A stretch of 64,000 nt of DNA from a virus (taxonomy: Duplodnaviria; Caudoviricetes). The notes below the pieces were generated by a model. That model had not been told where the DNA came from, did no database searches, and worked only from the letters and a program-made list of their open reading frames with translations. Position numbers and translations under genes: made by a program. Where the stretch lies: IMG/VR virus record IMGVR_UViG_3300043313_000605, positions 129-64,128 of that record; one strand, given 5' to 3'. Within the stretch, counting starts at the first letter, position 1. The number at the start of each line of letters is the position of its first letter. Of this stretch, positions 1 through 64,000 are shown piece after piece.

Positions 1-253
1 GCAGCGTGGTCGTACCAGCCTCTTTCCTGATCAGCGCGCGCACGCCACGATGGCACCGCTCGCAGACTGCGCCCTTCGCATACCGCTCCTCGACGTCGAG
101 AATCCCATGCACGAGCCAATCCGGCTCGGCGCAGAACGGACACGGGACATGGGTCCGCACGCCATCTACGCCGTACCCTTCAATCCGCATATTCTCGGCG
201 TACCGGATGTTGTACTCGTCGAGCGAGTCCGGCTCATTGATGTAGTACCCCAT
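1..253 (-). CDS. small Cys-rich hypothetical protein (runs off the window edge)
   Basis: Manual translation from ATG at 253 (MGYYINEPDSLDEYNIRY...CPFC...CERC); GGGAGGAG RBS upstream. Confidence 0.6.
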   Translation of the reverse strand, partial: MGYYINEPDSLDEYNIRYAENMRIEGYGVDGVRTHVPCPFCAEPDWLVHGILDVEERYAKGAVCERCHRGVRALIRKEAGTTTL

Positions 254-23101: not shown

Positions 23102-23129
23102 CGTACCCCCTCAGTGAACGTGATTCAAT

Positions 23130-27045: not shown

Positions 27046-27090
27046 GTCTCCTCCAGTGGACTGTCCGTTCAGTGAACTGCTGATGACCTA

Positions 27091-27118: not shown

Positions 27119-27267
27119 CCCCCTCGGTCATCTGGGGTGGAATAGTTCACCTGATGAAGCAATAGCACACACACGACGATTTTCGGGACCGAAATATTTT
27201 CAAGCTCGAAAATGAGTTGAACGTAATTCCGATTTGGAAACTGCCTTGTGTGTGTTATTCTTCTCTC

Positions 27268-27297
27268 TTGACAGATATGTATTGACTAGACTATTCT
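27268..27297 (+). promoter_or_regulatory. sigma70-like promoter for the plus-strand gene
   Basis: TTGACA-N18-TATTCT upstream of GTTCACTGGAGG-ATG. Confidence 0.5.
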
Positions 27298-27330
27298 CGT
27301 TATGGGACATCCCGTTCACTGGAGGAAAAA

Positions 27331-47677: not shown

Positions 47678-47679
47678 GG

Positions 47680-48473: not shown

Positions 48474-48556
48474 GCGCTCCTCGCTGGTGAGAAAGACGAC
48501 GGGGCGACAGCTTTCACGCCGCCGCCCCGCGTCTGACCAACGTAACGCCCGTGCGG

Positions 48557-49351: not shown

Positions 49352-49364
49352 GTCTGTGAATCCT

Positions 49365-50401: not shown

Positions 50402-50823
50402 CGAAAGCGCTCGTAGTTCGGTGGCACGTACGCTGTGCCGTATCCAGTGTCGTTCGTGCGGTGTGACTGCGAGCCCAGCCCAGCGCCATACCATCCAGCG
50501 GCGCCGCCCGTCACGGCCTTCACGATCGCCCACGCGCGCGGATCGATGTACCGATCGCGCCAGACGACGCTCGATGATGCCTGACTGGACATCCCTTCAC
50601 TCGCTTTGATGTACGGATCGAGCCCGTACTGCGACATGAAGTTGATTTGCAACATGATGGCGATCCGAAGACGCGCGATGTCACTCTCGTTCGTCAGAGC
50701 GGGTTCAGTGAGACCAAGCACCACTTCCGCGATCTCGTGATACGCAGCGAAGTCTTCCTCGCTGAGTTTCTTCGTGAAGGCAGAGGCAAGTGGATCGGCT
50801 GACTCGACGGTGTAGAGCGACAT
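50398..50823 (-). CDS. putative head-tail adaptor
   Basis: Position after the capsid genes; helical; IDPRAWAIV. Confidence 0.6.
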   Translation of the reverse strand: MSLYTVESADPLASAFTKKLSEEDFAAYHEIAEVVLGLTEPALTNESDIARLRIAIMLQINFMSQYGLDPYIKASEGMSSQASSSVVWRDRYIDPRAWAIVKAVTGGAAGWYGAGLGSQSHRTNDTGYGTAYVPPNYERFR

Positions 50824-50844
50824 CGCGCGTCTCCGGAAAAAGGA

Positions 50845-51276
50845 TTACTCCGTCTCGGCGCTCTCGCCGGCTTCGGCCGCGTCCTTCTCGGCCTTCAGCG
50901 CGTCGATGCGATCCTGAATGAGCGGCTTCGCCGTCACGCGCGTCTCGCGACGCTTCAGCTTCTGGAGATCGCCGATGTTCGTGACGCCTGCCAGTGCATC
51001 CGGCAGTTCGTCCACGCCCGTCGAAAGCAACTCGTCGAGATCGGCCTTGCCCTTCGCGCCGTCACGCTCGGCCTTACGCGCGAGTGCTGCCGCGCGCTGC
51101 TCCGGACCGCGCAGCTTCCGCTCCGAACGCTTCTCGGTGGAATCCACGCCGTACGCGCGATCGACAGACACGCCCTGCTCCTCGGCCAACGCGTCGAGCA
51201 AGTCTTCCTCGCCCTCGACAAACGTCTGACCGGCGAGCCGAGCGGTGCCCTGAATCTTTCGCTCCTCTTTCGCCAT
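50845..51276 (-). CDS. hypothetical head-associated protein
   Basis: Follows the major capsid gene; C-terminal L..L...E.R.T....I..RI module. Confidence 0.65.
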   Translation of the reverse strand: MAKEERKIQGTARLAGQTFVEGEEDLLDALAEEQGVSVDRAYGVDSTEKRSERKLRGPEQRAAALARKAERDGAKGKADLDELLSTGVDELPDALAGVTNIGDLQKLKRRETRVTAKPLIQDRIDALKAEKDAAEAGESAETE

Positions 51277-51308
51277 TGCCGTATCCCTGTGTGAAAGTGT
51301 GAGTGAAA

Positions 51309-51346
51309 GGCTGGGGAGTTGTCGTCCACGGGTGGACTCCCCAGCC
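51309..51346 (-). terminator. hairpin after the major capsid gene
   Basis: ggctggggagt...actccccagcc stem followed by TTTC on the minus strand. Confidence 0.5.
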
Positions 51347-51365
51347 GTTCAATCATGCTGGCAGA

Positions 51366-52424
51366 TCACGCGCCAGCGTCGATGACCCACATGCGCTTCT
51401 CGCGCGGAACCGGGAACGCGTTGACCTGACACTCGTAGGTCAGTTCGCGTCCGTTGCCCCCGACTTCGACGAACACCCGCTGGCCGCGATTGTCGAAGCT
51501 GGCTCCAGCAGACGCGCCGACATTGTTCATGTCGTGCGCGCGGTAGATCGGTGCATAGCACATGTTGCCGACTTCGATGTTCGACGGCAGCAGCGCCATC
51601 TTCTCATCGGGCCAGACATCGGTGGCCGTCGTGGCACCACCGCCGTCCGCGTAGACGTCGAACTGGTTCTCGCGAATGTAGAAGCGGAAGTCCACTCCCA
51701 AGTCCTGCGAGACCTGATCCTCGAACTGCCCAGCGGTGAGCGGCACCCCGTTGAGCCCCATCGGCGCGTCCGCCTGAATCACGCGATAGAGCGAACGACG
51801 CAGCACGACACCACCGATCGAGCCGATGGCATCCTTGCCGTCTTCTGCCCACGCGATGAACTCCGCGTACGCATCGACGCCCGCATCGTCCCACGGCGTC
51901 GCGGCATTCTGCCACCGCGCCGGATCGTAGTTGTACGAGACGGTCTGCGTCGCGTTCTTGTGCGGATGACGAACGATGATCGTGCCCGTCGTCCATGCCG
52001 TCACGTAGTCGATCTCCAGACGACGGAAGTTGGCTTCCGCCAGCGCATCGATGCGATCGGGGATGGAGGAGCGGATGATGTCGCGGAAGGCCGCGACGTT
52101 CCCCTGCACACGCTCGCCGTAGTCCTGAATCTCCTTCTCGGCGAACTTGAAGTAATCCTCGACCGGAATGAATTCCATCTCGGCGAGGTCCGGGGTCTCC
52201 ATGTTGATCTGCCGGCCGCGCGTGTTCCACTCGCGGCGATCGGACACGGGACGGAAGTCCACGTCGCCGATTTCCTTCAGCTTGACGCTGTTGACGTTCT
52301 TGCGCGGGAAAAAGATGTCCTGAAGTGTCTCGTCAACGTCGTCAGGGTCGATCTCCTGCACGCGTCGAGTGAGCACATCGGGAGACAGCCCTTCCTCCTG
52401 CGCCGCCCATGAAAAGGGACCCAT
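51366..52424 (-). CDS. major capsid protein (phage_cap_E-like)
   Basis: 352 aa; FFPRKNV, RRLE...AWTTGTI, YNYDP, W...VDAY, VNAFPV; follows scaffold and decoration genes. Confidence 0.85.
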   Translation of the reverse strand: MGPFSWAAQEEGLSPDVLTRRVQEIDPDDVDETLQDIFFPRKNVNSVKLKEIGDVDFRPVSDRREWNTRGRQINMETPDLAEMEFIPVEDYFKFAEKEIQDYGERVQGNVAAFRDIIRSSIPDRIDALAEANFRRLEIDYVTAWTTGTIIVRHPHKNATQTVSYNYDPARWQNAATPWDDAGVDAYAEFIAWAEDGKDAIGSIGGVVLRRSLYRVIQADAPMGLNGVPLTAGQFEDQVSQDLGVDFRFYIRENQFDVYADGGGATTATDVWPDEKMALLPSNIEVGNMCYAPIYRAHDMNNVGASAGASFDNRGQRVFVEVGGNGRELTYECQVNAFPVPREKRMWVIDAGA

Positions 52425-52436
52425 GTTGGCCTCGGC

Positions 52437-52844
52437 TTAGGAAGTGAGAAGGACGAGCTTAGAGCCCGCGCGATCGAACCCTGCGATCTCGTTCGCGGTG
52501 TAGTCCGCGCCGAGATTGAACTTCGCGGCATCCTGAATCACCGCGCCATACAGCCCGACACCAATCCACATGTCAGGCAGCGCCGCAATGATCGGCGCCG
52601 TGTTGCCTTCTGCCACCTTGATCGCCTCGAAGGTGACCGCAAACGGAAACGCAGGCGCGGCACCAACCAGCCCGCCTGCGCGTGTGAACGGCACCCCCGG
52701 CTTCAGATAGCCAAGCGCGTCGATCTCCCGACTCGTGAGCGCCGACAGATCAACGAGCAACTGATACTCGTGATCGACCGGACCCAGAAATACGTTGAGA
52801 TACGTCTTGACTTTCTGAATCGTCTTCGTGGATCGAATAGGCAC
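52437..52844 (-). CDS. head decoration protein
   Basis: GYLKPGVPF motif; between scaffold and major capsid genes. Confidence 0.7.
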   Translation of the reverse strand: MPIRSTKTIQKVKTYLNVFLGPVDHEYQLLVDLSALTSREIDALGYLKPGVPFTRAGGLVGAAPAFPFAVTFEAIKVAEGNTAPIIAALPDMWIGVGLYGAVIQDAAKFNLGADYTANEIAGFDRAGSKLVLLTS

Positions 52845-52872
52845 TGTCTGCGCCCTCTCGTCGATTCAGAGT

Positions 52873-53670
52873 TTATCGCGAACGCAATCCGACACGCTCG
52901 TTGAGCCGCTGCTTTGCGTCGCCCTTTTTCCGGTGGGCCGGTGCGCGCGGCGATTCGCCGTCGCTGTCGTCCTTCCCGTACTTCGCGCGAACTTCAGCAA
53001 CCGACTCATCGGCCGCAGTGGTTTTGCCGGTGTTGCCCGCGTCACCAGTGGTCGTGCCCCGACCGCTGCCGCGTCCAACCTTGCTCACGAGTTGTTCCGC
53101 ATCCAATGTCGGAATCACTTCGTCAGCCAGCGCCGCCAATGCTTTATCCAGATCGCTCTCTGCGATGGCAATGTCCTTGTCCTTTTGCAGAACTCGGACG
53201 CTTCCGTTGTAAGGCTTGATTCGGTTCAGTAGCGCATCGTCCTTGACGATGGCATTCGCGTGAATCTCCTTCACGCCCTTTGCGATCAGCGTCGCCTTCA
53301 GCGTCTTCACGGCGCTTGCGCGATCCTTTTCCTGATCCTTGCGATCACGGTCAGCCAGTTCGGCCGCGTGCTTCTCGGCCTGTGTGCGAAGTTCGGCATC
53401 GTACTTCTCGATGACCTTCGCCGGCTCCGGATTCGCCGTCTTCCATTCTGCCAGCTTCTGCTCGGCGGCAACCTTCGCGGCCTCGGCAGCGGTGACCTTG
53501 CCTTCCAACGTCGTCTTCTCCGTCGTGTGCTCGGCGGTCGCCACGCCGTGCCCTTCGTTGAAGATCGGTTGGTAGATGTCCACCTTCGCCTTGTCTTTCA
53601 GAGCGGTTCGCAATGCGCCCTTGTCTCCGAAAGCCAGAATGGCGGCAACGATCTCGTCCAGTGTGTTCAC
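52873..53670 (-). CDS. capsid scaffolding protein
   Basis: Charged coiled coil with a G-x-G-S-G tail; upstream of the major capsid gene. Confidence 0.7.
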   Translation of the reverse strand: MNTLDEIVAAILAFGDKGALRTALKDKAKVDIYQPIFNEGHGVATAEHTTEKTTLEGKVTAAEAAKVAAEQKLAEWKTANPEPAKVIEKYDAELRTQAEKHAAELADRDRKDQEKDRASAVKTLKATLIAKGVKEIHANAIVKDDALLNRIKPYNGSVRVLQKDKDIAIAESDLDKALAALADEVIPTLDAEQLVSKVGRGSGRGTTTGDAGNTGKTTAADESVAEVRAKYGKDDSDGESPRAPAHRKKGDAKQRLNERVGLRSR

Positions 53671-53818
53671 GCGATTCCCCTGTGCGGCGGGTGAGTCCGA
53701 AACAGCCCATTGACGGCGGGCCGGGACCGAAGCAGGCGACGTCAGCCGCCCGAGTGATGAGCGAAGCTGTCATTTTGGCATGCCCACTGTCAAGTAGGCA
53801 GTGACATTGCAAGCAAGA

Positions 53819-53854
53819 GAAAACCCGCCTCAACCGTAAAGGTTTCAGCGGGTC
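53819..53854 (-). terminator. intrinsic terminator-like hairpin
   Basis: acccgc...gcgggt followed by TTTCTC on the minus strand. Confidence 0.55.
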
Positions 53855-53855
53855 T

Positions 53856-54020
53856 CTACGAGATTGGCCCTGTGGATGGAGTCGCGTTCGCATCCGGTGC
53901 CCAGCCGTCTCGTGCGGCCTGTGTTTGGTCTAGGCAAGTGATCCGCGCTGGGAGTCATCTCCGAAGGATAACCCAACGCATTCGGCCCCGACCATTCTGC
54001 TTGGCAAAGAGAGAATGCAG
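53856..54020 (-). ncRNA. candidate structured RNA in the head module
   Basis: Several stems, one capped by cUUCGg; no credible ORF; ends at a terminator. Confidence 0.35.
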
Positions 54021-54025
54021 TATAA

Positions 54026-54961
54026 CTAGCGCAGGTTCGCCAGCCAACCCCCGTAGTTCGATAGCTGAACGTCGCTCATAAAACACCCGCAGTACGGATG
54101 TGGTGACCCCGGCCAGCGATCGATCGCATATCGGCCGGGGCCAAACCCGCTGTTCCGTGATGCGATGTCATCGCAGATGTCCGGCGATGACCGGAGCCCG
54201 GAGTGGCGCGCTGAGAGCGTCCACCGCCCCGTACGTGCGAGCCCGAGCGCCGCGAGCGCGCGCGCGTCGCCTTCTCGCATCGTGTTGAATGTTTCGGCCA
54301 CGACAACGGTTGCGCCCAGCATCGCGAGCCCTCTGAGTGGCGTCATCTCCTCACGCCGGACGTCGTACCGCTCATACTCGATGTCCTGCCCAAGCAGCAA
54401 GAGAAAGAGATCGTTCGACACTTCATCAGCCGGCGTATCGATCAGCGACGATGACAACAACAGTTGTTCGGCCGCTGTCGTCGCGTCGCTCGCGTACGCG
54501 GACGCAAGCTGGGGAATCGAGAGATCGTTGCGACGCAACCGGCGCACGGCATCCTGCACATTGAACGGGACGCGACGCACACGATCGTAGAAGATGTCGC
54601 GCGCCGCCCGCCCAGCTTCGACGCCGTTGTTCTCGACGACGATCCCAACATGCGTCGCCAAGAGACTTGCGATCACGAAATCGACGAATGCCTCTGATTC
54701 CAGCCCGCGTTCTCGAATGACATCGGACTGCGCTTGAATGGCGGCGCGCACGTACCCGCGCAGTCGTGCCAGTTCCACCGGATCGAGCGGCCGGCCTTCG
54801 CGCCCAGCGCGCGACGACAATCGCTTGAACTCATTGGCGATCTGCGCGAAGACCTGAACCAGCGCGAGACGGCGCTCCTCAGATTCGAGGAAAGCCGTCT
54901 CGCGAATGTCCACGAGCGCTCGATTGATGCGCTCGCCCGCCTGCCGCTCAGTGAGCGACAT
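54026..54961 (-). CDS. head morphogenesis/minor capsid protein (SPP1 gp7/Mu gpF-like)
   Basis: WTLSARH...DICD...GPGRY...PHPYCGC; follows the portal gene. Confidence 0.8.
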   Translation of the reverse strand: MSLTERQAGERINRALVDIRETAFLESEERRLALVQVFAQIANEFKRLSSRAGREGRPLDPVELARLRGYVRAAIQAQSDVIRERGLESEAFVDFVIASLLATHVGIVVENNGVEAGRAARDIFYDRVRRVPFNVQDAVRRLRRNDLSIPQLASAYASDATTAAEQLLLSSSLIDTPADEVSNDLFLLLLGQDIEYERYDVRREEMTPLRGLAMLGATVVVAETFNTMREGDARALAALGLARTGRWTLSARHSGLRSSPDICDDIASRNSGFGPGRYAIDRWPGSPHPYCGCFMSDVQLSNYGGWLANLR

Positions 54962-56655
54962 CAGCGGGTCGGTACGTTGGTGTTCGGTGTTCTCCGTGGC
55001 TTGTTCATCGGACGCCGGCCGTCACCATTCGAGACCTTCGATCGGTTCGATGGCGGGTTCCCCGGATTGTTGCGCGAGCCGCCCATCAATGCGCCCATCT
55101 GGGCAGCGGCATCCATCGCCGCTTCGGCTTTCTTGGCTGACGCGTCGTACTCGTTCTCGACCTTCGTCTGCTCGGCATCGTCGCCCAAGAATCCAACCGA
55201 CTTCGCGACCGAGACGAGAATCTTCCGCTTCAAGGTCGCTGACGACACGCCCGCCGTCCGCTCCATCTCGAAGAACAGCGCGCCGGACGCCATCGGATCG
55301 ATCAGATCGAACTCGCGCTTCCACTGGACCGATGCTGATGGGGCGGCCTCGCCCCACATCCCTTCCAGCCACGGCAGCACCGCATTCTGTCCGGTCTCGA
55401 TGTTCGCCGCGAAGTCCGCGAGCCGTGGCGCACGCACGTCGGTCCAACTGGTGCGCCGCGCCGCGCCGGATGCATCAGGCGAGACTTGAATCTCGTTCAG
55501 CATCAACTCCAGCACATGATCCTTGTTCTGTGCGATGCGCGACGCGAACGCCTGTTCGACTGATCCGCCCATCGACGCATCCTGTAACGTCGGCGTTTTC
55601 TTCGTCTCCTCGTTCGTCGGCACGGGCGCGTAGCGCGAGCCACCCATGACGATTTCCATGAACAGGTTGTAGCCGTCGCGATCGGCGCCGAGCAGGGCGA
55701 TGGCACTTGCGGCCGTATCCCAGATGTTCCAATCCGCCGCACTGCGCAGATTCATGTCAAGCACCGCCGCGTTGACGATCTCGGTGATGCCCGATCGGCT
55801 CATGCGCTGCATGTCTTCCTGCGGACGCACGCGCTCGTAGTAGAGCGGCACCATCGGAATTTCGCCGCCCGTCACATCCCATGCGGTGTCGTCGAAATCT
55901 TCCAGATCGCCGTCCTTGTCGAACCGGAACCAGCCACCGGACGCATACTCACGACCGAAATCAACGAAGCCCTCGCGCGTGAGCAGCAGGTACTCGACTT
56001 CAGGCTCGTTGCCGACGAACGCGCCGCGCACAACGCGCGGCCGGCGCACCGCGCGCCGGATGATCGCAAATGCCAACTGCCCGTTCTCGTAGTGCCAGTT
56101 CGTCACCGCGCGCGGAGAGTAGTCGGTGAGATACGGACGCTTCCCGCGCAACTCCTCCGCGCGCGACATCGGCGCTTCGGGTGGTCCCTCGACGTACACC
56201 CAGCGATGGCCCGTCGTGACGGCCATCTTCGCGACGGACTGCCAGTACGGGTCCCACTGCGAACCGTCGCGGCCCAACCCATCGGCGTTGTAGAAGATCA
56301 GTTCCGCTGGTGAGGGGAGTCGCTGGCTGCGCACGCGCGGCACGTCGCCCAGCCCCCCGAAATCGAGTGTGTCTTCCGGCGTCGGCCGCTGGCGGAAGAT
56401 GTGGCCCGTGGTGATGTCGCAGAACCGATCGCCGTAGTTCGTGTAGACAGCGGACGCTTTGCGCTGCGCCTCCCGCTTGCCTTTCATCTCCTCCCAGTCG
56501 AACAACACCAGTTCGGTGTCCACGACCCGCTTCCCGCCCATCACCAATCGTTCGTTCCGCTCCCACTCCTCGACGCACTCGTCGTAGATGGGATTGTGGA
56601 TGGTCAGGAACTTGTTGCGCTTGACGGTCAAGCCGCGCTGAAACAGTGGTGGCAT
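54961..56655 (-). CDS. portal protein
   Basis: 564 aa; RPYLTDYSPRAVTNW, GEIPMVPLY; position after terL. Confidence 0.85.
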   Translation of the reverse strand: MPPLFQRGLTVKRNKFLTIHNPIYDECVEEWERNERLVMGGKRVVDTELVLFDWEEMKGKREAQRKASAVYTNYGDRFCDITTGHIFRQRPTPEDTLDFGGLGDVPRVRSQRLPSPAELIFYNADGLGRDGSQWDPYWQSVAKMAVTTGHRWVYVEGPPEAPMSRAEELRGKRPYLTDYSPRAVTNWHYENGQLAFAIIRRAVRRPRVVRGAFVGNEPEVEYLLLTREGFVDFGREYASGGWFRFDKDGDLEDFDDTAWDVTGGEIPMVPLYYERVRPQEDMQRMSRSGITEIVNAAVLDMNLRSAADWNIWDTAASAIALLGADRDGYNLFMEIVMGGSRYAPVPTNEETKKTPTLQDASMGGSVEQAFASRIAQNKDHVLELMLNEIQVSPDASGAARRTSWTDVRAPRLADFAANIETGQNAVLPWLEGMWGEAAPSASVQWKREFDLIDPMASGALFFEMERTAGVSSATLKRKILVSVAKSVGFLGDDAEQTKVENEYDASAKKAEAAMDAAAQMGALMGGSRNNPGNPPSNRSKVSNGDGRRPMNKPRRTPNTNVPTR

Positions 56656-56656
56656 G

Positions 56657-57358
56657 TCACGTCACGGGTGAAAGTGTCCGGTTCTTCAACTCGCGCGCCA
56701 TGCAAATCTCTGCGCCGTCCTTCAGCATCTCGTCGATCGTATCGAACGAGAGATAGAAGAATCCCTTCTTCGCCCAGTTGCGGCCCCACGAATTCTTGCA
56801 CCGCACGAACTTCTGGCGCATGTTGACGCCATCGACCTTGAACTGGTGCCCGCCGAGCATCGAGCCGGTGTAGTGGCCGAAGAAATTCACGTCCGGCGTG
56901 TCGAATCCATCCGGCCACCATGTACCGATCGTCGCCGGTCCCACGCGGCGCAGCCACTCGTACAACTCGTCCGCTTCGCGTGCCCAGCGATACTCGCCGA
57001 TGTATCCCTCGCGCTTGACCGCTTGCGCCGCCGCATCGCTCGTCAATCCGGAGTCCACATCCGTGTGCGGTGTGCCGTCGATGTCCTGCCCGAGCCGATA
57101 GAGCCGCCACATCTCGGCGTCGGTGACCGTTCCTGTGTGCGTGACCGGACCATCTTCCCAGTAGTGCATCCACGAGAAGATCGTACAGCGGCTCGAATTC
57201 CCCTGATTGAGCCACGCGCCACTCGCGTTCCAATACTTGACGTCCGGCGCTGGCGTCTCGGTCTCCAGCACATCCTGTGCGCGAAAGAGATGAAACTTCC
57301 GCCCCATCCCCGGCTGCCAGCCCATCCCTCCCGGCTGTGGGAGACGCATGGTGATCAT
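56657..57358 (-). CDS. papain-like cysteine protease (C1A)
   Basis: NQGNSSRCT (oxyanion Q, catalytic C), GGHQ (H), KNSWGRNWAKKG (N). Confidence 0.85.
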   Translation of the reverse strand: MITMRLPQPGGMGWQPGMGRKFHLFRAQDVLETETPAPDVKYWNASGAWLNQGNSSRCTIFSWMHYWEDGPVTHTGTVTDAEMWRLYRLGQDIDGTPHTDVDSGLTSDAAAQAVKREGYIGEYRWAREADELYEWLRRVGPATIGTWWPDGFDTPDVNFFGHYTGSMLGGHQFKVDGVNMRQKFVRCKNSWGRNWAKKGFFYLSFDTIDEMLKDGAEICMARELKNRTLSPVT

Positions 57359-57534
57359 TGGAGATTCCCCTGTGAGACGGTCGCACGGAATTCCTCTGCA
57401 TGCTCGACGAAATCATCGACGATGCATCGGCTGCACAGCGTGATGCCGGGAACCGCGACCTCATCTTCCCCGCACGAACGGCAGCAGCGTCGCGCGACGA
57501 TCTCACTTTCGGTAAATGATGTACTCTGAGGCAT
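57355..57534 (-). CDS. small Zn-finger protein
   Basis: CCRSCG...LCSRC; coupled to the protease gene. Confidence 0.5.
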   Translation of the reverse strand: MPQSTSFTESEIVARRCCRSCGEDEVAVPGITLCSRCIVDDFVEHAEEFRATVSQGNLQ

Positions 57535-58861
57535 CGTAGGTGTTGGCGGAAGCGTACATGATGTCGTGCGCGCCCCAGACCAATGCATCGAGCCGGTCAG
57601 GCGAGCCGGGACCAAGATATTCATCGCGCGTGATCAGCGTCATCTGCGATTCGAGATCGGGAAAGTACCCAACATGGTGCATGCGGCCCTGCTCGTACAG
57701 GCCGGCGATCGGCTCGGCGCGATTCCCTTTGCTCTTGGTGGCCGTGACAGGGCGGAAGCGCACATCCGGATCGACGGCGTGAATGTTCACCTTCACTAGA
57801 TCGCCGCCGTTGTTCACTTCTCCGATCACGCGCGTCGCGCGCCAGTGGTGGTATTGCCGTACCGCCTCGCGCGCCCACGCGGTGGCAGTATGCTCGCCGG
57901 AGGCGTCCTTGAACAGATACCCGTCGCCATTCGCGCCGCGCCCCAAGACCATGATCCCGGTCTCATTCGAGTGCTCGGACGACGACACCGCTGGATCGAT
58001 CGCGATCGTGTAGCGCACGATGTCCGGCACGGCGTCCGGCCGGATGCGCGTGGCGTTGATCAAGTCCTGCGACCAGAGCGCTCCCGGCACGTCGCGCAGA
58101 ATCTGTGCGTGCAACTCCTGCTGGCCGAGCCGCGTGCCCTCGTACTTGTGGATGACGCGCTGGATGTACTTCGGCGCGAGATTCGAGATGTTCTCGTAGC
58201 TGGAGCCCGTCGTGACGACGTTCATCGGGTCGTCGTACAGGCCGATCACGATCGGAATCGGGCGCGGGGTCGTCGTGACGATCACCTGCGGTTCTTCCCC
58301 GAGCCGCAGCCCCAACTCCAGATTGTCCCACGTCTCGTCCGGGTACGTGTACTTCGCTAACTCATCCACCCACGCGTAGTGGAAGTTCGGGCCGCGCAAC
58401 TGTCCCGGCTCGTCGCCCGAGTACGTCTGCGCCATCGAGCCATCGGGCCACACCAGCTTCCGCCGCGTCGGGTAGTACGTCGGCATGAAGTCCGGCGTGG
58501 AATTCGCCAGAATGCCTGACGGTCCCTCGACCATGACGTCGCGTACATCGGCGGCGGTCTCCGCGACCAGCGCGATGCGAATCGGCACACCACGGTCGCG
58601 CGCCTGCTTGACCTTTTTGATGACCCAGTTCGCGCCCGTGTGTGTCTTGCCCCAGCCACGACCGGCAAGACAGAGCCAACAGAAATACGGCTCTGTTGGC
58701 TCTTGCTGGGTCGGTCGCCCCCAGAATCCCCAGTCGTATTGCAGGTCTTCCACCTGCTTCGGACTGAGACGCCCAATGATCTCGCGGCGCTCTGCCTCCC
58801 CGAGCGCCGCGACTTTCTCGGCTGTCGATCGTACGTCGTCCGGCCGCGCGAGAACGGGCAT
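57503..58861 (-). CDS. terL: terminase large subunit
   Basis: AGRGWGKT (Walker A), WVDELA (Walker B), VTTTPRP, IAIDPA, SPDRLDA nuclease motifs. Confidence 0.95.
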   Translation of the reverse strand: MPVLARPDDVRSTAEKVAALGEAERREIIGRLSPKQVEDLQYDWGFWGRPTQQEPTEPYFCWLCLAGRGWGKTHTGANWVIKKVKQARDRGVPIRIALVAETAADVRDVMVEGPSGILANSTPDFMPTYYPTRRKLVWPDGSMAQTYSGDEPGQLRGPNFHYAWVDELAKYTYPDETWDNLELGLRLGEEPQVIVTTTPRPIPIVIGLYDDPMNVVTTGSSYENISNLAPKYIQRVIHKYEGTRLGQQELHAQILRDVPGALWSQDLINATRIRPDAVPDIVRYTIAIDPAVSSSEHSNETGIMVLGRGANGDGYLFKDASGEHTATAWAREAVRQYHHWRATRVIGEVNNGGDLVKVNIHAVDPDVRFRPVTATKSKGNRAEPIAGLYEQGRMHHVGYFPDLESQMTLITRDEYLGPGSPDRLDALVWGAHDIMYASANTYDASEYIIYRK

Positions 58862-59259
58862 CAGTCGTTATAACTCTGCCACGACGGCTTGGCGTGCTTC
58901 GCGTGTTCGTACTCGTTGACGCGCGTATTCTCGGCGAGACTGTGAGGCGTGCGCTGTTCGATGGACTCGATGCGATCGGTGCGGACACTGATCTTCGCTC
59001 CAAAGACGTCCGTGAATGGAATCGTCTTCAAGATGCCGCTGGCAAACCACCCCTCGATCAACTGCCAGTGATCGAGCGGCGCGTAGTGACAGTCGCCTCC
59101 GATCGTGTTGATCAGCACATAGCCATCGTCGTACGTCCACTGCCCCTGTGCGTCCGCCATTGGTTGCTCTCGAAAAAGGATTTTCCCGCACGTTCCGCAG
59201 TACCCAAACTGGTTGTGCCAGCGGACCTCGATCGCGGGATGCTCGCAGTGTTCACGCAT
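58861..59259 (-). CDS. hypothetical protein
   Basis: CEH...CGTCG; TGATG-coupled to terL. Confidence 0.6.
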   Translation of the reverse strand: MREHCEHPAIEVRWHNQFGYCGTCGKILFREQPMADAQGQWTYDDGYVLINTIGGDCHYAPLDHWQLIEGWFASGILKTIPFTDVFGAKISVRTDRIESIEQRTPHSLAENTRVNEYEHAKHAKPSWQSYND

Positions 59260-59962
59260 CGTCGGTGCGGGCTGGCGCCGCGATCTCGCGGACAGGTCCC
59301 TCGGCCGGCGCCTGCCCTGCCGCCAACTGTTGTCGCGCCTCGTTCGCCAACTCCTGCCGGCGCGCAATCGTCGCCAGTCCCTCCATCACGATGCGCGCTG
59401 GGTCCGTGACGTCTTCCGTCTGAATCGGCTTGCCGTCCTTCCCGGTGACCTCGGTCTTCGCTTTCGTGGACTGCCCGAGCAGGTTCTGGCCTAAGAACAT
59501 CAGCATCTGCTTGTCGCCGGCCATCGCCACCTGCAACTGTTTTCGTCTGAGTCCGATCAGCCCGAGTGGTTTGATCAGGTCCGCGTACTCCATGAACGTC
59601 ATGTCATGGACGGCGCGCACCCGATCCCGAATGAACTGCTCGGACCGCCCGAAGAATGCCGCAATCTCGGTCAGGGTGCACTGGAGCCGCAACAGCTTGT
59701 CAAAGGTCTCCCACCCACGCTCATCCTCTGGCAACAGGTCGTGCGCCAGCGGCCTGCCGGGACGGCCGGCCTTCCTCGGAATGGTGGGTAGCTGGGCCGT
59801 GTCGTCGTCGTCCCCCTCGGTCACGGCCGTCAGATAGCTCTTGGCGCGCTCGATTGCACGCTGCTCCTGCTCTGCCTTTTCGGCAGCCCGCGTGACTGCC
59901 ATTCCGGCAGGGTTAGCCTGAGCGGGCTCGGCAGTATCGTTTCCTGCTGGATTGTCTGGCAT
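59252..59962 (-). CDS. terS: terminase small subunit
   Basis: GRP...LQCTLTEIAAFFG, LRRKQLQVAMAGDKQMLMFLGQNLLGQ, EVTGKDGKPI. Confidence 0.8.
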   Translation of the reverse strand: MPDNPAGNDTAEPAQANPAGMAVTRAAEKAEQEQRAIERAKSYLTAVTEGDDDDTAQLPTIPRKAGRPGRPLAHDLLPEDERGWETFDKLLRLQCTLTEIAAFFGRSEQFIRDRVRAVHDMTFMEYADLIKPLGLIGLRRKQLQVAMAGDKQMLMFLGQNLLGQSTKAKTEVTGKDGKPIQTEDVTDPARIVMEGLATIARRQELANEARQQLAAGQAPAEGPVREIAAPARTDDA

Positions 59963-60139
59963 ATTGGCAGGGTACTGCCAGTTTGGCGGGCCGGCAAGAC
60001 TGCCTCAAGAAAACCGTGTATGGCAGCGGTCGCTTCCAAAATCATTGGTGGCTCGCGAGAGAGGCCCATACCCCAAAAAAAAATGGGGGTGGGGTACCCG
60101 ATAGGCCGGTACCCCACCCGAGTGAATCGCACACACACG

Positions 60140-60385
60140 CTATCGGCGATCGGTGCCCGATGCTTCCTCCATCCACCCTACGAGCACGAGCCACACGAGC
60201 ACACAGGCGAGCATGAATGCGCCGCCAGTGAATAGCAGTGCAGCGCCGAGCCAACGTATCGGCGCACAGAGCAACCAGCACAGTGCGCGCGCTGTGCGGT
60301 GTGTGCTGGACAACGCGCGAGACGAGAGGGAACGCACCACAGCCAACCACTGCGCGACCCATGCGCCAACCTGACGCATGCTCAC
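60140..60385 (-). CDS. small membrane protein
   Basis: GTGA overlap with the upstream gene; hydrophobic C-terminal half. Confidence 0.45.
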   Translation of the reverse strand: MSMRQVGAWVAQWLAVVRSLSSRALSSTHRTARALCWLLCAPIRWLGAALLFTGGAFMLACVLVWLVLVGWMEEASGTDRR

Positions 60386-60642
60386 GCAACCGCGCGGGTG
60401 ACAGTGAACGTCAGTGCATCCCGCTGAGATACCACAAGCGCATGAGTGCTTTCCTTACTGTGAGTCTCGACCACACGCCGCAACTGGGCGGCTGTGTCGC
60501 TGTCGTCTGTCTCGACCACGATAGCACTGCGCGACCAGTACACACGAGCACCACGAGCGCGCAGGATACGACCGATGTAAGCCAGCAATCCGGTATTTTC
60601 GATTGTCAACGGCCGAACCGGCTGTAGCAAATCAGTGAACAT
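60382..60642 (-). CDS. hypothetical protein
   Basis: TTTCACTGGGGG leader, ATG at 60642. Confidence 0.6.
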   Translation of the reverse strand: MFTDLLQPVRPLTIENTGLLAYIGRILRARGARVYWSRSAIVVETDDSDTAAQLRRVVETHSKESTHALVVSQRDALTFTVTRAVA

Positions 60643-60744
60643 CGTTGCCCCCAGTGAAAACGTGTCAGATACCAACCCTATAGATGTGACTAGGGTGGAC
60701 TCTCTTTAAGAGAGTAGGGAAAGAAAGGAATTACTTACTCGGTA

Positions 60745-60981
60745 CTATCGGCGAGCATGCCGAACGCCAGAAAGATCATAGCGACCATGCATACGACCAC
60801 GAACGCCAGACGACACCAGAGCACGAATGACATAACGGCACCCTCCCAGCACATGTGAACGCACCACGACATACACCACGAGACCAGAGAGCACGAGCAC
60901 CAGCGAGCACGAGCCGACGAACGCAGCAACCACGGTTCCACACACGGAATGCACCAGCGCGCGGTTTGACACAGTGAACAA
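60745..60981 (-). CDS. small membrane protein (start uncertain)
   Basis: Follows a repeat element; hydrophobic. Confidence 0.45.
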   Translation of the reverse strand: MFTVSNRALVHSVCGTVVAAFVGSCSLVLVLSGLVVYVVVRSHVLGGCRYVIRALVSSGVRGRMHGRYDLSGVRHARR

Positions 60982-61034
60982 GCCTCAGTGAACGTGAGAT
61001 CGAGCGCCAGCCGATGTGCTGGCGCTCTATCCGT

Positions 61035-61289
61035 CTATGCGTGTGCGATGTGCTCGGCGATGTGCGCTGGCGCGCCCGACACAGGTCCGTCATACAGCAC
61101 CCGATGCACTCCGGCACCGTGGTGCGGTCTCAGGGAAACCGTTGCCATGTCCACCCCGTCACGGTCCCAGAGTCGCACCACAACGGCACCCTCCCAACTT
61201 GCCGCCATCGTCCGCAGTCCGCTTGCTTTCGTGCCGAGCCGCGTCACTTCGCCACGGCTCCCCCGCAATTCCCCGTAGAAATGCGCCAT
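61035..61289 (-). CDS. small phage protein
   Basis: MAHFYGELRGSRGEVTRLGTKASG; GAGGG RBS. Confidence 0.75.
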   Translation of the reverse strand: MAHFYGELRGSRGEVTRLGTKASGLRTMAASWEGAVVVRLWDRDGVDMATVSLRPHHGAGVHRVLYDGPVSGAPAHIAEHIAHA

Positions 61290-61366
61290 AGAGCAAACCC
61301 TCGATGATGCGCGCCGAATCGCTCTAGGACGATCCTAGAGCGAATGGCGCACGGTTTAGAACACCC

Positions 61367-61588
61367 TCACGAGCCGCGCACCCGATCGAGCGCGGCGCGC
61401 TCTAACTCGACGTCATCCTCCCGTTCCTGCTCGGCCGCGTCACCGAGTCCAGTCGCGCCAACGATGGCGACCGCATAGACCAGCACCGCCGCAATCCGGA
61501 ACCCGTTGAACACGAGCACCGAACCAACTGCAAACCCAACCAACGCCAGAAAGGCAAACGCGTTCGTGCCATGCCGTGACAGTGCCAT
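61367..61588 (-). CDS. small two-TM membrane protein
   Basis: Start follows a repeat element; two TMs and an acidic tail. Confidence 0.7.
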   Translation of the reverse strand: MALSRHGTNAFAFLALVGFAVGSVLVFNGFRIAAVLVYAVAIVGATGLGDAAEQEREDDVELERAALDRVRGS

Positions 61589-61652
61589 TGACCGTTTCCT
61601 CAGTGAACGTGAAACCAGCGCGCCAGCCGATGTGCTGGCGCGCTGTCGTGCG

Positions 61653-61955
61653 TCAGTCCGCGTCCGCCATTTCCGTAGCGCGCTGCTCGTAATCGGCAAC
61701 CGTGGCGCGTTCGTGCTCGGCGTTCAATTCCGCAGCCGCATCGTCCGCAGCCGTGGACACGTTCTCGACCAGCGCATAGCACCACGCGGCAACGATTCCG
61801 CCGATTTCATAGTGTCCGGCCAGCACCAGTAACACAGTGATACCGGCGGCGGTCACGTAATGGTGCGGATGCGACACGAGCACCCGAATGTGGCGCCGTC
61901 GCACGGCTCTAGCCCACACCGCAAGTGCGTACGGCGCTCGGATCAGTTTCGCCAT
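61653..61955 (-). CDS. small membrane protein
   Basis: GGAGGAA RBS; TM region and acidic tail. Confidence 0.7.
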   Translation of the reverse strand: MAKLIRAPYALAVWARAVRRRHIRVLVSHPHHYVTAAGITVLLVLAGHYEIGGIVAAWCYALVENVSTAADDAAAELNAEHERATVADYEQRATEMADAD

Positions 61956-62019
61956 ATTCCTCCTGCGTTACCTGTGAATGGAGAAACGCGCCAGCCGATG
62001 TGCTGGCGCGCTGCACTGC

Positions 62020-62376
62020 TTACGACAGTTTCCACACGCCGGGCGACACCCGCACCACGAGCCGCGCGCGCTGCAACGCCAGCAACGCACCGTGGACAAT
62101 GGACTCAGTGTCCACCTGTCCGCCCACCTGTGCGGCGATGTGGTCGGCGATGGTATCCTCGTGCGACTGGCCGTTGCGCGTCAGGTACGTCATAACGCGT
62201 TTCTGGTTCGGATCGGTGACGCGTATTTTCGCTGCACCCGTTGTGCGGGTGGCAGTCTTCCGGACCGTGCGACGGCGCGCCGTGCGCCCGTCATCGTCAC
62301 TGCGCACAGGGCGCGTAAACCGCGCCTGTTGCACATGGTCCAAAATGTCACCATCAAAAGCGAGATCATCAAACAT
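62020..62376 (-). CDS. protein with C-terminal winged-helix-like domain
   Basis: QKRVMTYL...VHGALLALQRARLVVRVSPGVWKL. Confidence 0.7.
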   Translation of the reverse strand: MFDDLAFDGDILDHVQQARFTRPVRSDDDGRTARRRTVRKTATRTTGAAKIRVTDPNQKRVMTYLTRNGQSHEDTIADHIAAQVGGQVDTESIVHGALLALQRARLVVRVSPGVWKLS

Positions 62377-62442
62377 GGCGCGTGTTCCTCAGTGAACGTG
62401 AGATCGAGCGCCAGCACATCGGCTGGCGCTCACAGTGAACGA

Positions 62443-62922
62443 CTACCGCGCTGGCGCGCGGTTGCTCGGATGGTTGCCGCCGTAGCGCTCTTGCTCGGCG
62501 CGATACTGCCACCATCCCTCCGGAGCACGCCAGACCGCCGTCAGTTCGGCCGCGCCACCGTGAAAACCGATGGTTGCGGTGACGCCCGAGCATCGGCCGG
62601 GGAGCATGGCGGCAATGTCACGCACGGCGCGAATGGCGATTTGTTCGCACGACGGGAAATGTCCAACCGTCGTAAACTGCTCGGTGAAGTACCGGCGAAC
62701 GTCTTGCCAGTCGATCAAAAAGCCTTGGTCATCCAACGATGCGGGGGCGCCAGTCACGGTGACAGTGTAGTCCAGTTGTCGCGTGACTCCTTTGGGTCCG
62801 CATCGGTCGTGTGCGTCGTGCTCGTGCTCGACGTGAAAACTACCTTTCGTTGTCATCGTGACTGCCTGTGCGTCAGCAACCGGCATCGTTGCCAGCACTG
62901 GCGCGGTATTCGGAATGTGCAT
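62443..62922 (-). CDS. degenerate QueD/PTPS-like (T-fold) protein
   Basis: KGSFHVEH...RC...YTVTVTG...LDDQGFLIDW...PSCEQIA aligns by eye with QueD, but the HGH motif is missing. Confidence 0.6.
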   Translation of the reverse strand: MHIPNTAPVLATMPVADAQAVTMTTKGSFHVEHEHDAHDRCGPKGVTRQLDYTVTVTGAPASLDDQGFLIDWQDVRRYFTEQFTTVGHFPSCEQIAIRAVRDIAAMLPGRCSGVTATIGFHGGAAELTAVWRAPEGWWQYRAEQERYGGNHPSNRAPAR

Positions 62923-62989
62923 TCCGATTTCCCTCAGTGAACGTGAACAGCAAGCGCGCCAGCCGATGTGCTGGCGCGCTGTGTCGTGC

Positions 62990-63163
62990 TCAATCGTGAA
63001 TCAGTCCAGCGCGCAACATCTCAGCGGCGAGCCGCCCGTAACTGCCTTGCAAGTGCCACACGGCGCCCGAGTCCATGAGCGCTTGCATAGCCTCTACTTT
63101 TTCATCGTCTGACGTTGGCCCGTCGATTTCCTCGACGATGGCGACCGCTTCAAAGTCCGTCAT
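62990..63163 (-). CDS. small phage protein, 57 aa
   Basis: Manual translation ...MQALMDSGAVWHLQGSYGRLAAEML..., a recurrent small phage protein pattern. Confidence 0.7.
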   Translation of the reverse strand: MTDFEAVAIVEEIDGPTSDDEKVEAMQALMDSGAVWHLQGSYGRLAAEMLRAGLIHD

Positions 63164-63318
63164 ACGAGAGACCGCGCCAGTCGCCAGTTGTCACGAGCCG
63201 CCCACACGTTGACGAGCATTTCGCCACGGTTGCCGGTCTCGCGATAGTATCGAGCGGCCGCAAGCTGGACACGCGCCCGAGCGCGCAGGTTCGCAGCATT
63301 CCTTTCCTGTTCCGCCAT
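63160..63318 (-). CDS. small protein, 52 aa
   Basis: Manual translation MAEQERNAANLRARARVQLAAARYYRETG...; ATGA-coupled to the next gene; follows a repeat element. Confidence 0.6.
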   Translation of the reverse strand: MAEQERNAANLRARARVQLAAARYYRETGNRGEMLVNVWAARDNWRLARSLV

Positions 63319-63384
63319 TTGGCATTTCCTCAGTGAACGTGAGATCGAGCGCCAGCCGATGTGCTGGCGCTCTGTGGTGCGCTG

Positions 63385-63642
63385 CTACTTGTCCGACGAC
63401 GGCGGGAGCCACGTAGACGCGGGAGCCGACATTGCCGCGTCCAGCGCGGCGCCGTGAATCGCTCCGTAGGTGTTCCGTGCGATCTCGTCCACCCGACGTT
63501 GAATCGCTTCCTGATTGGCGACGATGGTTGCCTGATTCATGAGCGACTGACGCACGAGCGACGCGATTTCTTTCTGTGCGTCGCGAATGGCGTGCTGATT
63601 CCCGATGATGGTTGCCTGATTGGCAATGAGTGCAGTGAACAT
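63385..63642 (-). CDS. small coiled-coil protein
   Basis: NQATII/NQATIV internal repeat; follows a repeat element. Confidence 0.7.
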   Translation of the reverse strand: MFTALIANQATIIGNQHAIRDAQKEIASLVRQSLMNQATIVANQEAIQRRVDEIARNTYGAIHGAALDAAMSAPASTWLPPSSDK

Positions 63643-63710
63643 GTTGTGTGTACCTCAGTGAACGTGAGACAAGAGCGCCAGCCGAATTGCTGGCGCTCTG
63701 TGGTGCGTGG

Positions 63711-63968
63711 TCAGTAACCGGGAGCGAATGCTTTATCGACGGCTCGTGTCACGTCGTCTGGCCCGATGCGTTCGACAATGCGCCGTGCATCATCTTCCGC
63801 ATTTTCTCGTGCCGTTTTAAGCACGCTTGCCCATGTGCGTTTGCTGGCGTTCGTGCGGACGTTGCCGAACGTCCGCACCCAATGCACGAACGTGTCCGGC
63901 GTCATTGGCTTGCCTTTGTCGGTAGGCATGGCGCCGAGTAACACGAGCCGCGCCAGTAGCTGTGTCAC
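63711..63968 (-). CDS. hypothetical protein
   Basis: Stop lies 11 nt before a repeat element. Confidence 0.6.
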   Translation of the reverse strand: MTQLLARLVLLGAMPTDKGKPMTPDTFVHWVRTFGNVRTNASKRTWASVLKTARENAEDDARRIVERIGPDDVTRAVDKAFAPGY

Positions 63969-64000
63969 GTCCGCATCGTTGGTGATACGGGGAACGCCAG

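Follow-up and report, generated by a model that had tools for sequence, protein, structure and literature searches.

The window analysed here is a stretch of 64,000 nucleotides (nt) that comprises all but the first 128 bases of one 64,128-bp contig (IMG/VR record IMGVR_UViG_3300043313_000605, Caudoviricetes) and ends where that contig ends; its source is an uncultured soil phage. Towards that end, seven junctions between small genes carry an element in which a hairpin is followed by a conserved leader, a Shine-Dalgarno (SD) sequence and a start codon, and the core of the leader, the 8-mer GTTCACTG (hereafter the word), recurs elsewhere in the window. This repeat system is real, statistically robust, lineage-specific and regulatory; the leader word is its key element and the array its most conspicuous part. 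Since the same core follows seven sigma-70-like promoters and two other post-stop hairpins, the element is an expression module rather than a product of chance or of plain duplication. It is proposed that the array elements are intercistronic mRNA modules, in which the hairpin serves as punctuation and the start-associated leader is read by a trans-acting factor. We put the probability of this reading at roughly 0.45, which leaves an RNA-level signal for stabilisation or processing, one of several options named in an initial annotation of the sequence, as the best single explanation.

Seven hairpin-leader modules in a small-gene array

The hairpin GCGCCAGC-N6-GCTGGCGC matches the window seven times without a mismatch (at 61004, 61620, 61988, 62408, 62956, 63349 and 63675), against 0.13 matches expected from shuffles. 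All genes of the array lie on the minus strand, and the junctions read, in their sense, stop codon, 7-11 nt, hairpin, 3-7 nt, (C/T)TCAC-GTTCACTG-AGG, 8-10 nt, ATG, with intergenic gaps of 64-68 nt at six of the seven. The 15-mer leader (CCTCAGTGAACGTGA on the plus strand) is exact at six of the seven hairpin junctions and is found once more at 23109; at the remaining junction, 61956-62019, a degenerate leader (ATTCACAG) follows the retained hairpin. When a covariance model of the seven copies is run with filters off, it returns exactly these seven in the window, at 53-75 bits; next come, at 18 bits each, the leader at 23109 and a leader with an unrelated hairpin at 19603. The seven elements of the initial annotation, including the copy with a degenerate leader, are thereby recovered in full, and so is its observation that two copies are identical: 60983-61028 and 63328-63373 agree at 46 of 46 nt, from the stem base to the SD exactly, and a third copy, 62387-62432, shares 89% identity with them. 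Its expectation that the array continues past the window is not borne out, as the window ends with the contig, the next genes on a circular reading are without the element and the covariance model finds no eighth copy.

The stems are perfect, with 10-12 bp and a 6-nt loop (26-30 nt overall), and the module contexts fold at -25 to -34 kcal/mol. Across the alignment 91.7% of the cells are paired, and eight of the 12 stem pairs, the inner eight, are invariant in all seven copies and are for that reason uninformative on structure. One pair switches from A-U in four copies to C-G in three, and one G-U and one U-G are tolerated in the stems, on the sense strand only. The stem covariation is therefore a single compensatory event that divides the copies into two subtypes, A and B; pairing is indeed kept through the switch, as had been claimed, but the several covarying extensions of the earlier description reduce to this one event beside the invariant pairs. 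The leader may add a weak mini-helix of 4 bp, CUCA/UGAG, with a C-G pair in four copies and U-G in two. The loop is inverted in the copy at 62408 and different in that at 63675. The two identical copies, modules 2 and 7 in the list below, adjoin unrelated genes and have subtype B copies between them; since selection on spacer and loop letters hardly explains 46 identical positions, recent conversion or spread is suggested. The absence of a U-tract after the array stems, seen at the outset, stands, and a terminator-like scan of 44001-64000 lists no array stem. Neither a promoter scan of the same region nor a second pattern scan found sigma-70-like hexamers in the array modules. The array and its surroundings read as follows in the direction of transcription, with the core module in brackets:

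63643-63710 (63653-63701), minus strand: module 1, 11-bp hairpin with loop AATTCG and TCTCAC-GTTCACTG-AGG, before a gene of 85 amino acids (aa); 70.4 bits
63319-63384 (63328-63375), minus strand: module 2, subtype A, before a 52-aa gene; 75.1 bits
62923-62989 (62932-62983), minus strand: module 3, subtype B (C-G), leader GTTCAC-GTTCACTG, before a 159-aa gene; 71.3 bits
62377-62442 (62387-62434), minus strand: module 4, subtype A with inverted loop, before a 118-aa winged-helix gene; 62.6 bits
61956-62019 (61966-62014), minus strand: module 5, subtype B with G-U at the base, ATTCACAG and then its own GGAGG, before a 100-aa gene; 53.5 bits
61589-61652 (61598-61647), minus strand: module 6, subtype B with a 12-bp stem, GTTTCAC-GTTCACTG, before a 73-aa gene; 73.0 bits
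61290-61366, minus strand: odd junction, a long hairpin (-39 kcal/mol) with an internal loop and its own SD, without the leader core, before an 84-aa gene
60970-61034 (60983-61030), minus strand: module 7, subtype A; 73.8 bits
60140-60981, minus strand: the operon's next three small genes, namely a hydrophobic open reading frame (ORF) at 60.7-60.98 kb and two genes of 86 and 79 aa
60075-60119, minus strand: intrinsic terminator with a 12-bp stem and U9, closing the small-gene operon before the putative terS

The odd junction is the one place where a different, long hairpin had been remarked on. Several modules carry additional copies of the core. In module 1 a second copy (63633-63640) overlaps the start codon of the 85-aa gene; in module 4 the hairpin has GTTCACTG on either side (62433-62440 and 62390-62397); and in module 7 a second copy (60972-60979) lies 14 nt downstream, the start of the following gene being a TTG at 60981 or lying at 60941 or 60872. 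Beyond module 7, a variant core, GTTTTCACTG, stands ahead of the 86-aa gene, and exact cores occur at 60633-60640, over the start codon of that gene, and at 60402-60409. The 52-aa gene after module 2 is coupled to a 57-aa gene. The U9 terminator exemplifies a complete stop signal of this phage; with it and three small genes in between, the array lies near the putative terS rather than next to it, as had been stated, and terS is itself a positional call without a profile match. In the stretch 59963-60139 this terminator is followed by TTGCCG-17-TACCCT and, after 6 nt, by the ATG of the putative terS, which lacks an SD; transcription of the late operon may therefore yield a leaderless mRNA.

The leader word across the genome

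The core GTTCACTG occurs 24 times in the window, a 12-fold excess over the 2.03 copies expected that none of 100 shuffles reaches. Every one of them has the same orientation as the local gene: the minus strand holds 23, and the one core on the plus strand precedes the only plus-strand gene. Seven of the 24 have the pattern TTGNNN-16..18-TANNNT ending 6-16 nt upstream, which is found at 0.2% of background positions (binomial P~4e-14). The core begins 7-8 nt after the -10 hexamer in five of these promoters (cores at 23119, 20306, 16077, 11608 and 5215), and the distance is 13 nt at 27077 and 16 nt at 27314, on the plus strand. Because the promoter-linked word is downstream of the -10 and clear of both hexamers in all seven cases, it should be transcribed. 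Another eight cores follow a post-stop hairpin, six in the array and two after unrelated stems (19591-19658 and 5656-5706), indicating that the sequence of the hairpin is exchangeable and that the word is what is kept. Counted as units, nine have a post-stop hairpin (the seven of the array and these two) and seven are of the promoter type, with gaps of 51-68 nt. The remaining cores comprise three that overlap a start codon as NTG-TTC-ACT-G, 14-27 nt after another or variant copy, one just 5' of the module 4 hairpin, one at 2365 near a TTGACA, one at 60409, 17-23 nt ahead of the next start, and three within genes. Three ORFs open with NTG-TTC-ACT-G, encoding Met-Phe-Thr (63640-63642, 60979-60981 and 60640-60642).

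On a heuristic gene list whose non-structural region runs from 27.3 kb down to 1 and then from 64 kb down to 60.1 kb, the word with at most one mismatch lies within 60 nt upstream of 19 of 55 non-structural gene starts versus 1 of 33 structural ones. The start-proximal word abuts the SD at 15 of these 19 starts. Long leaders hold two copies, an exact one at the promoter and a one-mismatch copy at the SD (5215, 11608 and 27077). The second copies stand at variable spacing, 14-43 nt, which fits RNA recognition better than a fixed pair of DNA operators. Copies outside the array have non-homologous flanks, a C at -1 (11 of 18 copies) being the only shared letter, and it is therefore the word itself that is selected and not a duplicated block. 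Judged by eye against the 16S 3' tail, the word shows no complementarity beyond GAGG. The units outside the array are as follows:

27268-27321, plus strand: promoter-like TTGACA-18-TATTCT, core 16 nt on, abutting the GGAGG of the gene at 27331-27864
27070-27118, minus strand: promoter-like TTGACT-16-TATGAT, core 13 nt on; variant core GTCCACTG abuts the SD
23112-23155, minus strand: promoter-like TTGTGG-17-TAGATT, 7 nt, TCAC-GTTCACTG-AGGGGG; exact 15-mer leader without a hairpin
20299-20342, minus strand: promoter-like TTGCGC-17-TAAATT, 7 nt, core
19591-19658, minus strand: stop, 14-bp stem centred on CAACCGTTG, GTTTCAC-GTTCACTG, SD, ATG; unrelated hairpin, 18.3 bits
16070-16114, minus strand: promoter-like TTGACG-17-TACCAT, 8 nt, core
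11601-11644, minus strand: promoter-like TTGCGC-17-TACTAT, 7 nt, core; variant core ATTCACTG 16 nt further
5656-5706, minus strand: stop, TTTCACTG, unrelated 12-bp hairpin, GTTCACTG 1 nt before ATG; word on both sides of the hairpin
5208-5252, minus strand: promoter-like TTGAAT-17-TATACT, 8 nt, GTTCAC-GTTCACTG; variant core GTTTACTG abuts the SD

Two further sequence features were observed. After a capsid-region gene (51172-51365) a long hairpin is followed by TTTCACTC-ACAC-TTTCACAC-AGGGA and a start codon; it is the sole structural-region case of a hairpin, TTCAC repeat and SD in this order, with a variant of the word. Separately, the palindrome CAACSGTTG has 30 sites between 2456 and 54312 (e.g. 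16767, 19631, 29021 and 29570) versus 0.39 expected, a count reached in none of 100 shuffles, with an extended consensus of about GC(A/G)CAAC(C/G)GTTG(T/C)G. None of these sites is in the array; 27 are intragenic and three intergenic, two of the latter centring post-stop hairpins. As the intragenic sites span all three frames (19, 7 and 1), the palindrome is a DNA-level signal and not a repeated peptide; a dimeric protein may bind or modify the DNA at these sites.

Array genes and the phage genome

The genes between the modules encode mutually unrelated proteins, as originally described, with no pair at E<0.05 in an all-against-all blastp of 13 ORFs. The membrane proteins and the winged-helix protein named at that time are likewise recognisable: hydrophobic segments occur in three of the small proteins (100, 73 and 79 aa) as well as in the 60.7-kb ORFs, and an AlphaFold2 model of the 118-aa protein (62020-62376) has a C-terminal winged helix at residues 55-117, with a predicted local distance difference test (pLDDT) score of 74-92 by 10-residue block. 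The best PDB matches of this model are all winged-helix domains, with template modelling (TM) scores of 0.6-0.79 on the target and E from 6e-3. For the 159-aa protein, called QueD-like, the nearest ESM-Atlas clusters are viral and contain PTPS/QueD in 10-13% of their members (score 0.93), but Pfam, NCBIfam and PDB sequence searches are blank, so that the QueD assignment is a lead only. The 57-aa protein belongs to DUF7417 (Pfam) and the 84-aa protein to phrog_5927 (PHROGs); otherwise the small genes have no NCBIfam match and no informative family match in Pfam or PHROGs, and neither the cargo nor the capsid-region protein has a match among cultured phages. PADLOC, whose library covers defence and not anti-defence proteins, gives no match for the 13 ORFs. 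A role of the cargo in anti-defence or host takeover, which had been part of the initial interpretation, thus finds no support in these searches.

The only plus-strand gene (27331-27864) encodes a 177-aa protein and is divergently placed in a control region of 318 nt; five relatives of the protein have 48-73% identity. In the stretch 27046-27864, the control region holds two good sigma-70-like promoters, and the 3' part of the gene overlaps a convergent minus-strand ORF at 27715-28224. The protein has a helical N-terminal half and an acidic disordered tail with a conserved RFA end. Considered as a possible repressor, it has no family, no PDB sequence match and a model of pLDDT 57 without a fold match. 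It has no sequence similarity to any solved structure, and hence none to the solved cluster A repressor.

The window has a G+C content of 61%, and on a heuristic ORF list its minus strand carries nearly all ORFs with coding-type GC3. It has no DNA match to cultured phages among 50,697 phage records, and its large terminase subunit is at most 50% identical to any of these records, with 40% at best to actinophages. Pfam scans took in 58 and 33 ORFs of the heuristic list, about 89 distinct ones (two genes were entered twice with other starts), and the PHROGs scan covered 59 ORFs. Besides tail and baseplate proteins and an amidase, Pfam recognises a primase/MCM-type helicase, an SNF2 helicase, a RecE/YqaJ exonuclease and an amidoligase/GATase/GGACT trio. 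Three landmarks matter for what follows:

59252-59962, minus strand: putative small terminase (terS), called from its position upstream of TerL
57503-58861: large terminase TerL, T4-type (Pfam)
23488-24813: ParB-family protein (Pfam), which reaches the TIGR00180 cut-off

The putative terS has no match in Pfam, PHROGs or NCBIfam. No integrase, recombinase, RNA polymerase, sigma factor or RNase was recognised by Pfam among the roughly 90 heuristic-list ORFs, and no integrase, RNA polymerase, sigma factor or RNase by PHROGs among its 59; the one PHROG that bears the label 'recombinase' is matched over only 31 residues, its profile having 58 positions. The window has no tRNAs and no Rfam match at gathering thresholds, and a permissive Rfam scan of 59900-64000 gave one chance-level match (24.2 bits against a threshold of 41, E 0.21). 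The trio of amidoligase, glutamine amidotransferase and gamma-glutamyl cyclotransferase-like genes (20564-23101) lies behind one promoter-plus-word unit. Two long ORFs, one of 1237 aa (28665-32378) with internal 60-nt and 120-nt periodic repeats and one of 1537 aa (43064-47677) with 52-nt repeats, are probably the tail fibre and the tape measure.

Relatives and read sets

Among proteins, the 159-aa cargo has ten homologues of 63-86% identity, in parallel with the TerL relatives (56-86%), and the 118-aa cargo has two related cluster representatives, so at least these two cargo genes are retained stably by the lineage. The TerL relatives of 63-86% identity are encoded on contigs of up to 67 kb. 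The repeat system itself was searched for by pattern. Scans of IMG/VR returned 3 and 74 stretches, all in unrelated coding contexts, and only one of 76 rows had a hairpin of at least 7 bp upstream, in AT-rich unrelated sequence. A scan of GTDB genomes returned two stretches and one of JGI metagenomes three, all chance matches. A TerL search of IMG/VR found no close locus, and its profile version found 80 loci, all at most 51% identical; in these 80 loci (1.0 Mb) there are 18 core copies on both strands, no 12-mer occurring at least four times and no covariance-model match, and the palindrome CAACSGTTG has only nine sites. An IMG/VR search with cargo profiles found none.

Soil metagenome runs contain short contigs identical to parts of the window. 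In four sequencing runs, compared through such contigs at depth 2-7, neither joints nor circles nor skipped cassettes were found; window parts left uncovered carry no information on this point. In two soil runs (X1 and X2) a contig fits the window rightwards from 61361 and has 255 unlike letters to the left, and a window-like contig ends at 61362. This looks like a branch, 6 nt past the point where the 73-aa gene stops, and it possibly represents a variant phage with another downstream gene; alternatively, with 80% likeness, the contig could come from an unrelated organism. A soil metatranscriptome (run X5) contains two contigs identical to parts of array genes (61694-61909 and 62547-62744).

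Proposed function of the modules

We propose that the seven modules (46-68 nt) are copies of one unit and lie distally in a long operon made up of small non-structural genes; this operon would end at the U9 terminator just before the putative terS. The very stable GC hairpin, 7-11 nt after the upstream stop, would most likely be mRNA punctuation; it might protect the 3' end of the upstream cistron, act as a weak attenuator or, where the downstream cistron is processed, stabilise its 5' end. With its SD-abutting position and, usually, a second UCAC before it, the leader (C)GUUCACUG would be a general start-associated word that heads many separately started non-structural units, either after a sigma-70-like promoter or after a post-stop hairpin. 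Where the core lies 6-16 nt after a -10 hexamer, it should come to stand at or near the 5' end of the RNA, and the grammar of a unit may be written as promoter or post-stop hairpin, word, SD and start. A trans-acting factor, which may be a phage or host protein or the ribosome, would read the word in mRNA and so co-regulate translation or stability. The near-identical modules could also serve homologous recombination, as a by-product. This reading is preferred because the word is sense-oriented, transcribed, SD-abutting and flexibly spaced, and because G-U pairs are tolerated on the sense strand only.

Several points weigh against it. The stem covariation amounts to one event only, and the invariant inner eight pairs would equally fit a recent duplication or a palindromic DNA site. 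The distribution of the word is also exactly that of DNA stoperators, and candidate DNA binders are encoded, namely the ParB-family protein (23488-24813) and, within the array, the winged-helix protein. Scans of roughly 90 ORFs with Pfam and of 59 with PHROGs revealed neither an RNase nor an RNA-binding protein. The two metatranscriptome contigs lie inside ORFs and show neither ends nor strand, and DNA carry-over into the RNA library is possible.

The explanation that survives best after the mRNA module, possible though on the unlikely side, places recognition at the DNA level. In an operator- or stoperator-like system, a phage protein would bind the asymmetric word and block initiation at the promoters, where it occupies about +1 to +10, and elongation in the array, the stems being a second protein site or plain terminator-like hairpins; the ParB-family protein, the winged-helix protein (62020-62376) and the 177-aa protein (27331-27864) are the candidates. 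Such a system would account for 24 asymmetric copies oriented with transcription at seven promoters and in short intergenic gaps, and for perfect palindromic stems with an invariant 8-bp core. The plus-strand gene, whose leader carries the word and could thus be autoregulated, stands in a divergent control region and is conserved in five relatives. The ParB-family protein reaches the TIGR00180 cut-off, and the copies at 61608 and 19613 read GTTTCACGT, which corresponds to positions 2-10 of the parS consensus (by eye, with the consensus string confirmed only from a literature search hit). However, none of the seven promoter-linked copies overlaps a -35 or -10 hexamer, all of them lying within the transcript; 15 of 19 start-proximal copies abut the SD; paired copies 14-43 nt apart show no helical phasing; and G-U pairs occur on the sense strand only. 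Neither an integrase nor a recognisable repressor was found with Pfam (about 90 ORFs) or PHROGs (59), and the 177-aa protein, with its pLDDT of 57, has no fold match and no similarity to solved structures.

A bolder form of the mRNA reading, which we consider rather unlikely, is a genome-wide post-transcriptional regulon built on one RNA word of 8-9 nt, in which a single factor, phage-encoded or hijacked from the host, would switch all small non-structural genes together. Transcripts from the seven sigma-70-like promoters would start at or beside (C)GUUCACUG, and each module would re-create the succession of hairpin or 5' end, word and SD inside the long operon. The hairpin may here be a small palindromic insertion that targets the word, as two cases with the word on both sides could suggest, and its insertion may create new cassette boundaries.

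It is improbable that the elements are ordinary duplicated junctions, that is, weak terminators or generic stabilisers together with a good ribosome-binding region that have spread locally, with no dedicated factor. The array copies are clearly homologous, down to spacer and loop letters that look non-functional; unrelated post-stop hairpins without special context exist at 16738-16791, 61290-61366 and 51172-51365; and UUUC, a short U run, lies within 0-3 nt of the subtype B stems and the stem at 19613. Yet outside the array the word has non-homologous flanks, with C at -1 shared in 11 of 18 copies, its 12-fold enrichment over shuffles is strand-locked, and its fixed position 7-8 nt from five independent -10 hexamers is unexplained by copy-and-paste.

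Still weaker, and in our view very improbable, is a recombination or cassette platform resembling PeSL repeats or integrons, in which the modules would mainly be crossover points for small-gene shuffling. PeSL repeats of T4-type phages do mediate such shuffling according to the passages cited (PMC2839356, PMC4122927). The 46-nt identity of modules 2 and 7 beside unrelated genes and across subtype B copies, the one inverted loop, the duplication-like hairpins with the word on both sides (62377-62442 and 5656-5706) and the unexplained contig branch at 61361 would all be in keeping with it. Against this stand the four runs without joints, circles or skipped cassettes (contigs, depth 2-7), the ten homologues of the 159-aa protein (63-86%) that parallel TerL (56-86%), the relatives of the 118-aa protein and the want of an integrase or recombinase among the roughly 90 ORFs; the promoter association of the word, moreover, has no bearing on recombination. 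Of the modular expression and exchange platform first envisaged, the expression part is thus upheld by the core that the array shares with promoters and other hairpins, and recombination at the modules is plausible, by analogy with PeSL, as a by-product of the repeats.

That the module is itself a promoter for a non-host-type polymerase or sigma factor, either an N4-like hairpin promoter or a phage-specific -10-only promoter, is hardly credible. It sits where a restart signal would be expected, and hairpin and conserved word superficially recall the hairpin promoters of the N4 virion RNA polymerase; but the modules lack promoter-like hexamers, scans of roughly 90 ORFs (Pfam) and of 59 (PHROGs) turned up neither an RNA polymerase nor a sigma domain, the word also follows ordinary sigma-70-like promoters at +7/+8, and a start 6-8 nt after the word would strip the conserved SD from the transcript. 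The hairpin promoter of the initial annotation is accordingly disfavoured. Sigma-54 and ECF-type promoters were compared by eye with consensus sequences and rejected for unfit spacing.

Comparison with known systems

The closest known system is that of the start-associated SAS/ESAS sequences of cluster K phages, whose logic is alike and whose sequence and lineage are different. In the accounts cited, SAS/ESAS occur in cluster K mycobacteriophages, with analogous motifs in cluster EF Microbacterium phages (PMC3203893, PMC7302621, PMC12699233). They are described there as an asymmetric word at the ribosome-binding site, in one orientation, about half with an upstream inverted repeat and in gaps of >50 bp (PMC3203893), and are defined by a 13-bp consensus, GGGATAGGAGCCC, with up to two mismatches (PMC3203893, PMC12699233). 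The same passages give 10-20 copies per genome and propose a role in translation or gene expression, and Pope et al. report in the part cited little support for mRNA hairpins in the inverted repeats. As far as these descriptions go, the phage studied here likewise has a one-orientation asymmetric word at the ribosome-binding site upstream of starts (24 of 24 in sense, 15 of 19 abutting the SD), and about half of its units have a post-stop inverted repeat (nine versus seven of the promoter type; gaps 51-68 nt). By the same descriptions it differs in that GGGATAGGAGCCC or GGGAAAGGACCCC and (C)GTTCACTG share no sequence similarity, no consensus word occurring in the modules or leaders; in that the word lies 5' of the SD, whereas the SAS/ESAS word contains it; in that the word also stands 6-16 nt after seven sigma-70-like promoters; and in that its inverted repeats form stems of 10-12 bp that pair perfectly and include a compensatory change. 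The phage also falls outside the cluster K/EF lineage (no DNA match in 50,697 records, TerL at most 50%).

Cluster A stoperators, as the cited text presents those of L5 and TipsytheTRex, are asymmetric 13-mers whose orientation follows transcription; more than 20 of them occur, at promoters and in short spaces between genes (PMC9283540). Such systems involve a phage-encoded immunity repressor, a monomer with an HTH and a stoperator domain, and binding of protein to the double-stranded site that stops RNA polymerase. The 24 oriented asymmetric copies at promoters and intergenic gaps resemble them on that description. In contrast to the stoperators so described, the sites here are confined to the non-structural part of the genome and mostly abut the SD, and the promoter-linked ones lie beyond the -10 without ever covering a hexamer. 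With Pfam, PHROGs and NCBIfam no repressor of the cluster A type came to light, and no integrase was found.

PeSL of T4-type phages combine a strong sigma-70-like promoter with an effective terminator (PMC2839356, PMC4122927). PeSL cassettes are further characterised by indels or replacements between relatives that break within the motif and by the formation of mini-circles. On that account they share with the present modules the form of small composite stem-loop motifs repeated between small non-essential ORFs, which could mediate modular shuffling. Unlike PeSL so defined, the array modules are without a promoter (no site in the 44001-64000 scan) and without a U-tract. The RNase III sites of the T7 early genes form long, irregular hairpins that span some two helical turns and usually contain an internal loop; they would yield stabilised, hairpin-ended monocistronic mRNAs. 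They too are repeated hairpins between the genes of a polycistronic transcript; the stems here, however, are perfect, only 10-12 bp long and tied to a single-stranded conserved word, so that the analogy drawn in the initial annotation is not supported for the modules, a long stem with an internal loop being present only at the odd junction 61290-61366. Integron attC sites are imperfect bottom-strand hairpins with extrahelical bases and R/L boxes. The modules differ from attC arrays in their perfect stems, and no IntI-type tyrosine recombinase was found by Pfam among the roughly 89 ORFs.

Start-associated sequences have been catalogued in actinobacteriophages since 2011, and no mechanism had been established according to the cited part of a 2025 survey (PMC12699233). 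The present phage offers a cleaner case, in that the word is separable from the SD. At seven host-type promoters it is bound up with the bases transcribed first, in the array it is coupled to perfect covarying hairpins, and this combination of word, promoter and hairpin narrows the mechanism to a reader of non-structural mRNA 5' leaders or of DNA just inside the transcript. If relatives were to show breakpoints in the modules, the idea derived from PeSL, that regulatory repeats serve as shuffling points, would extend beyond the T4-type phages.

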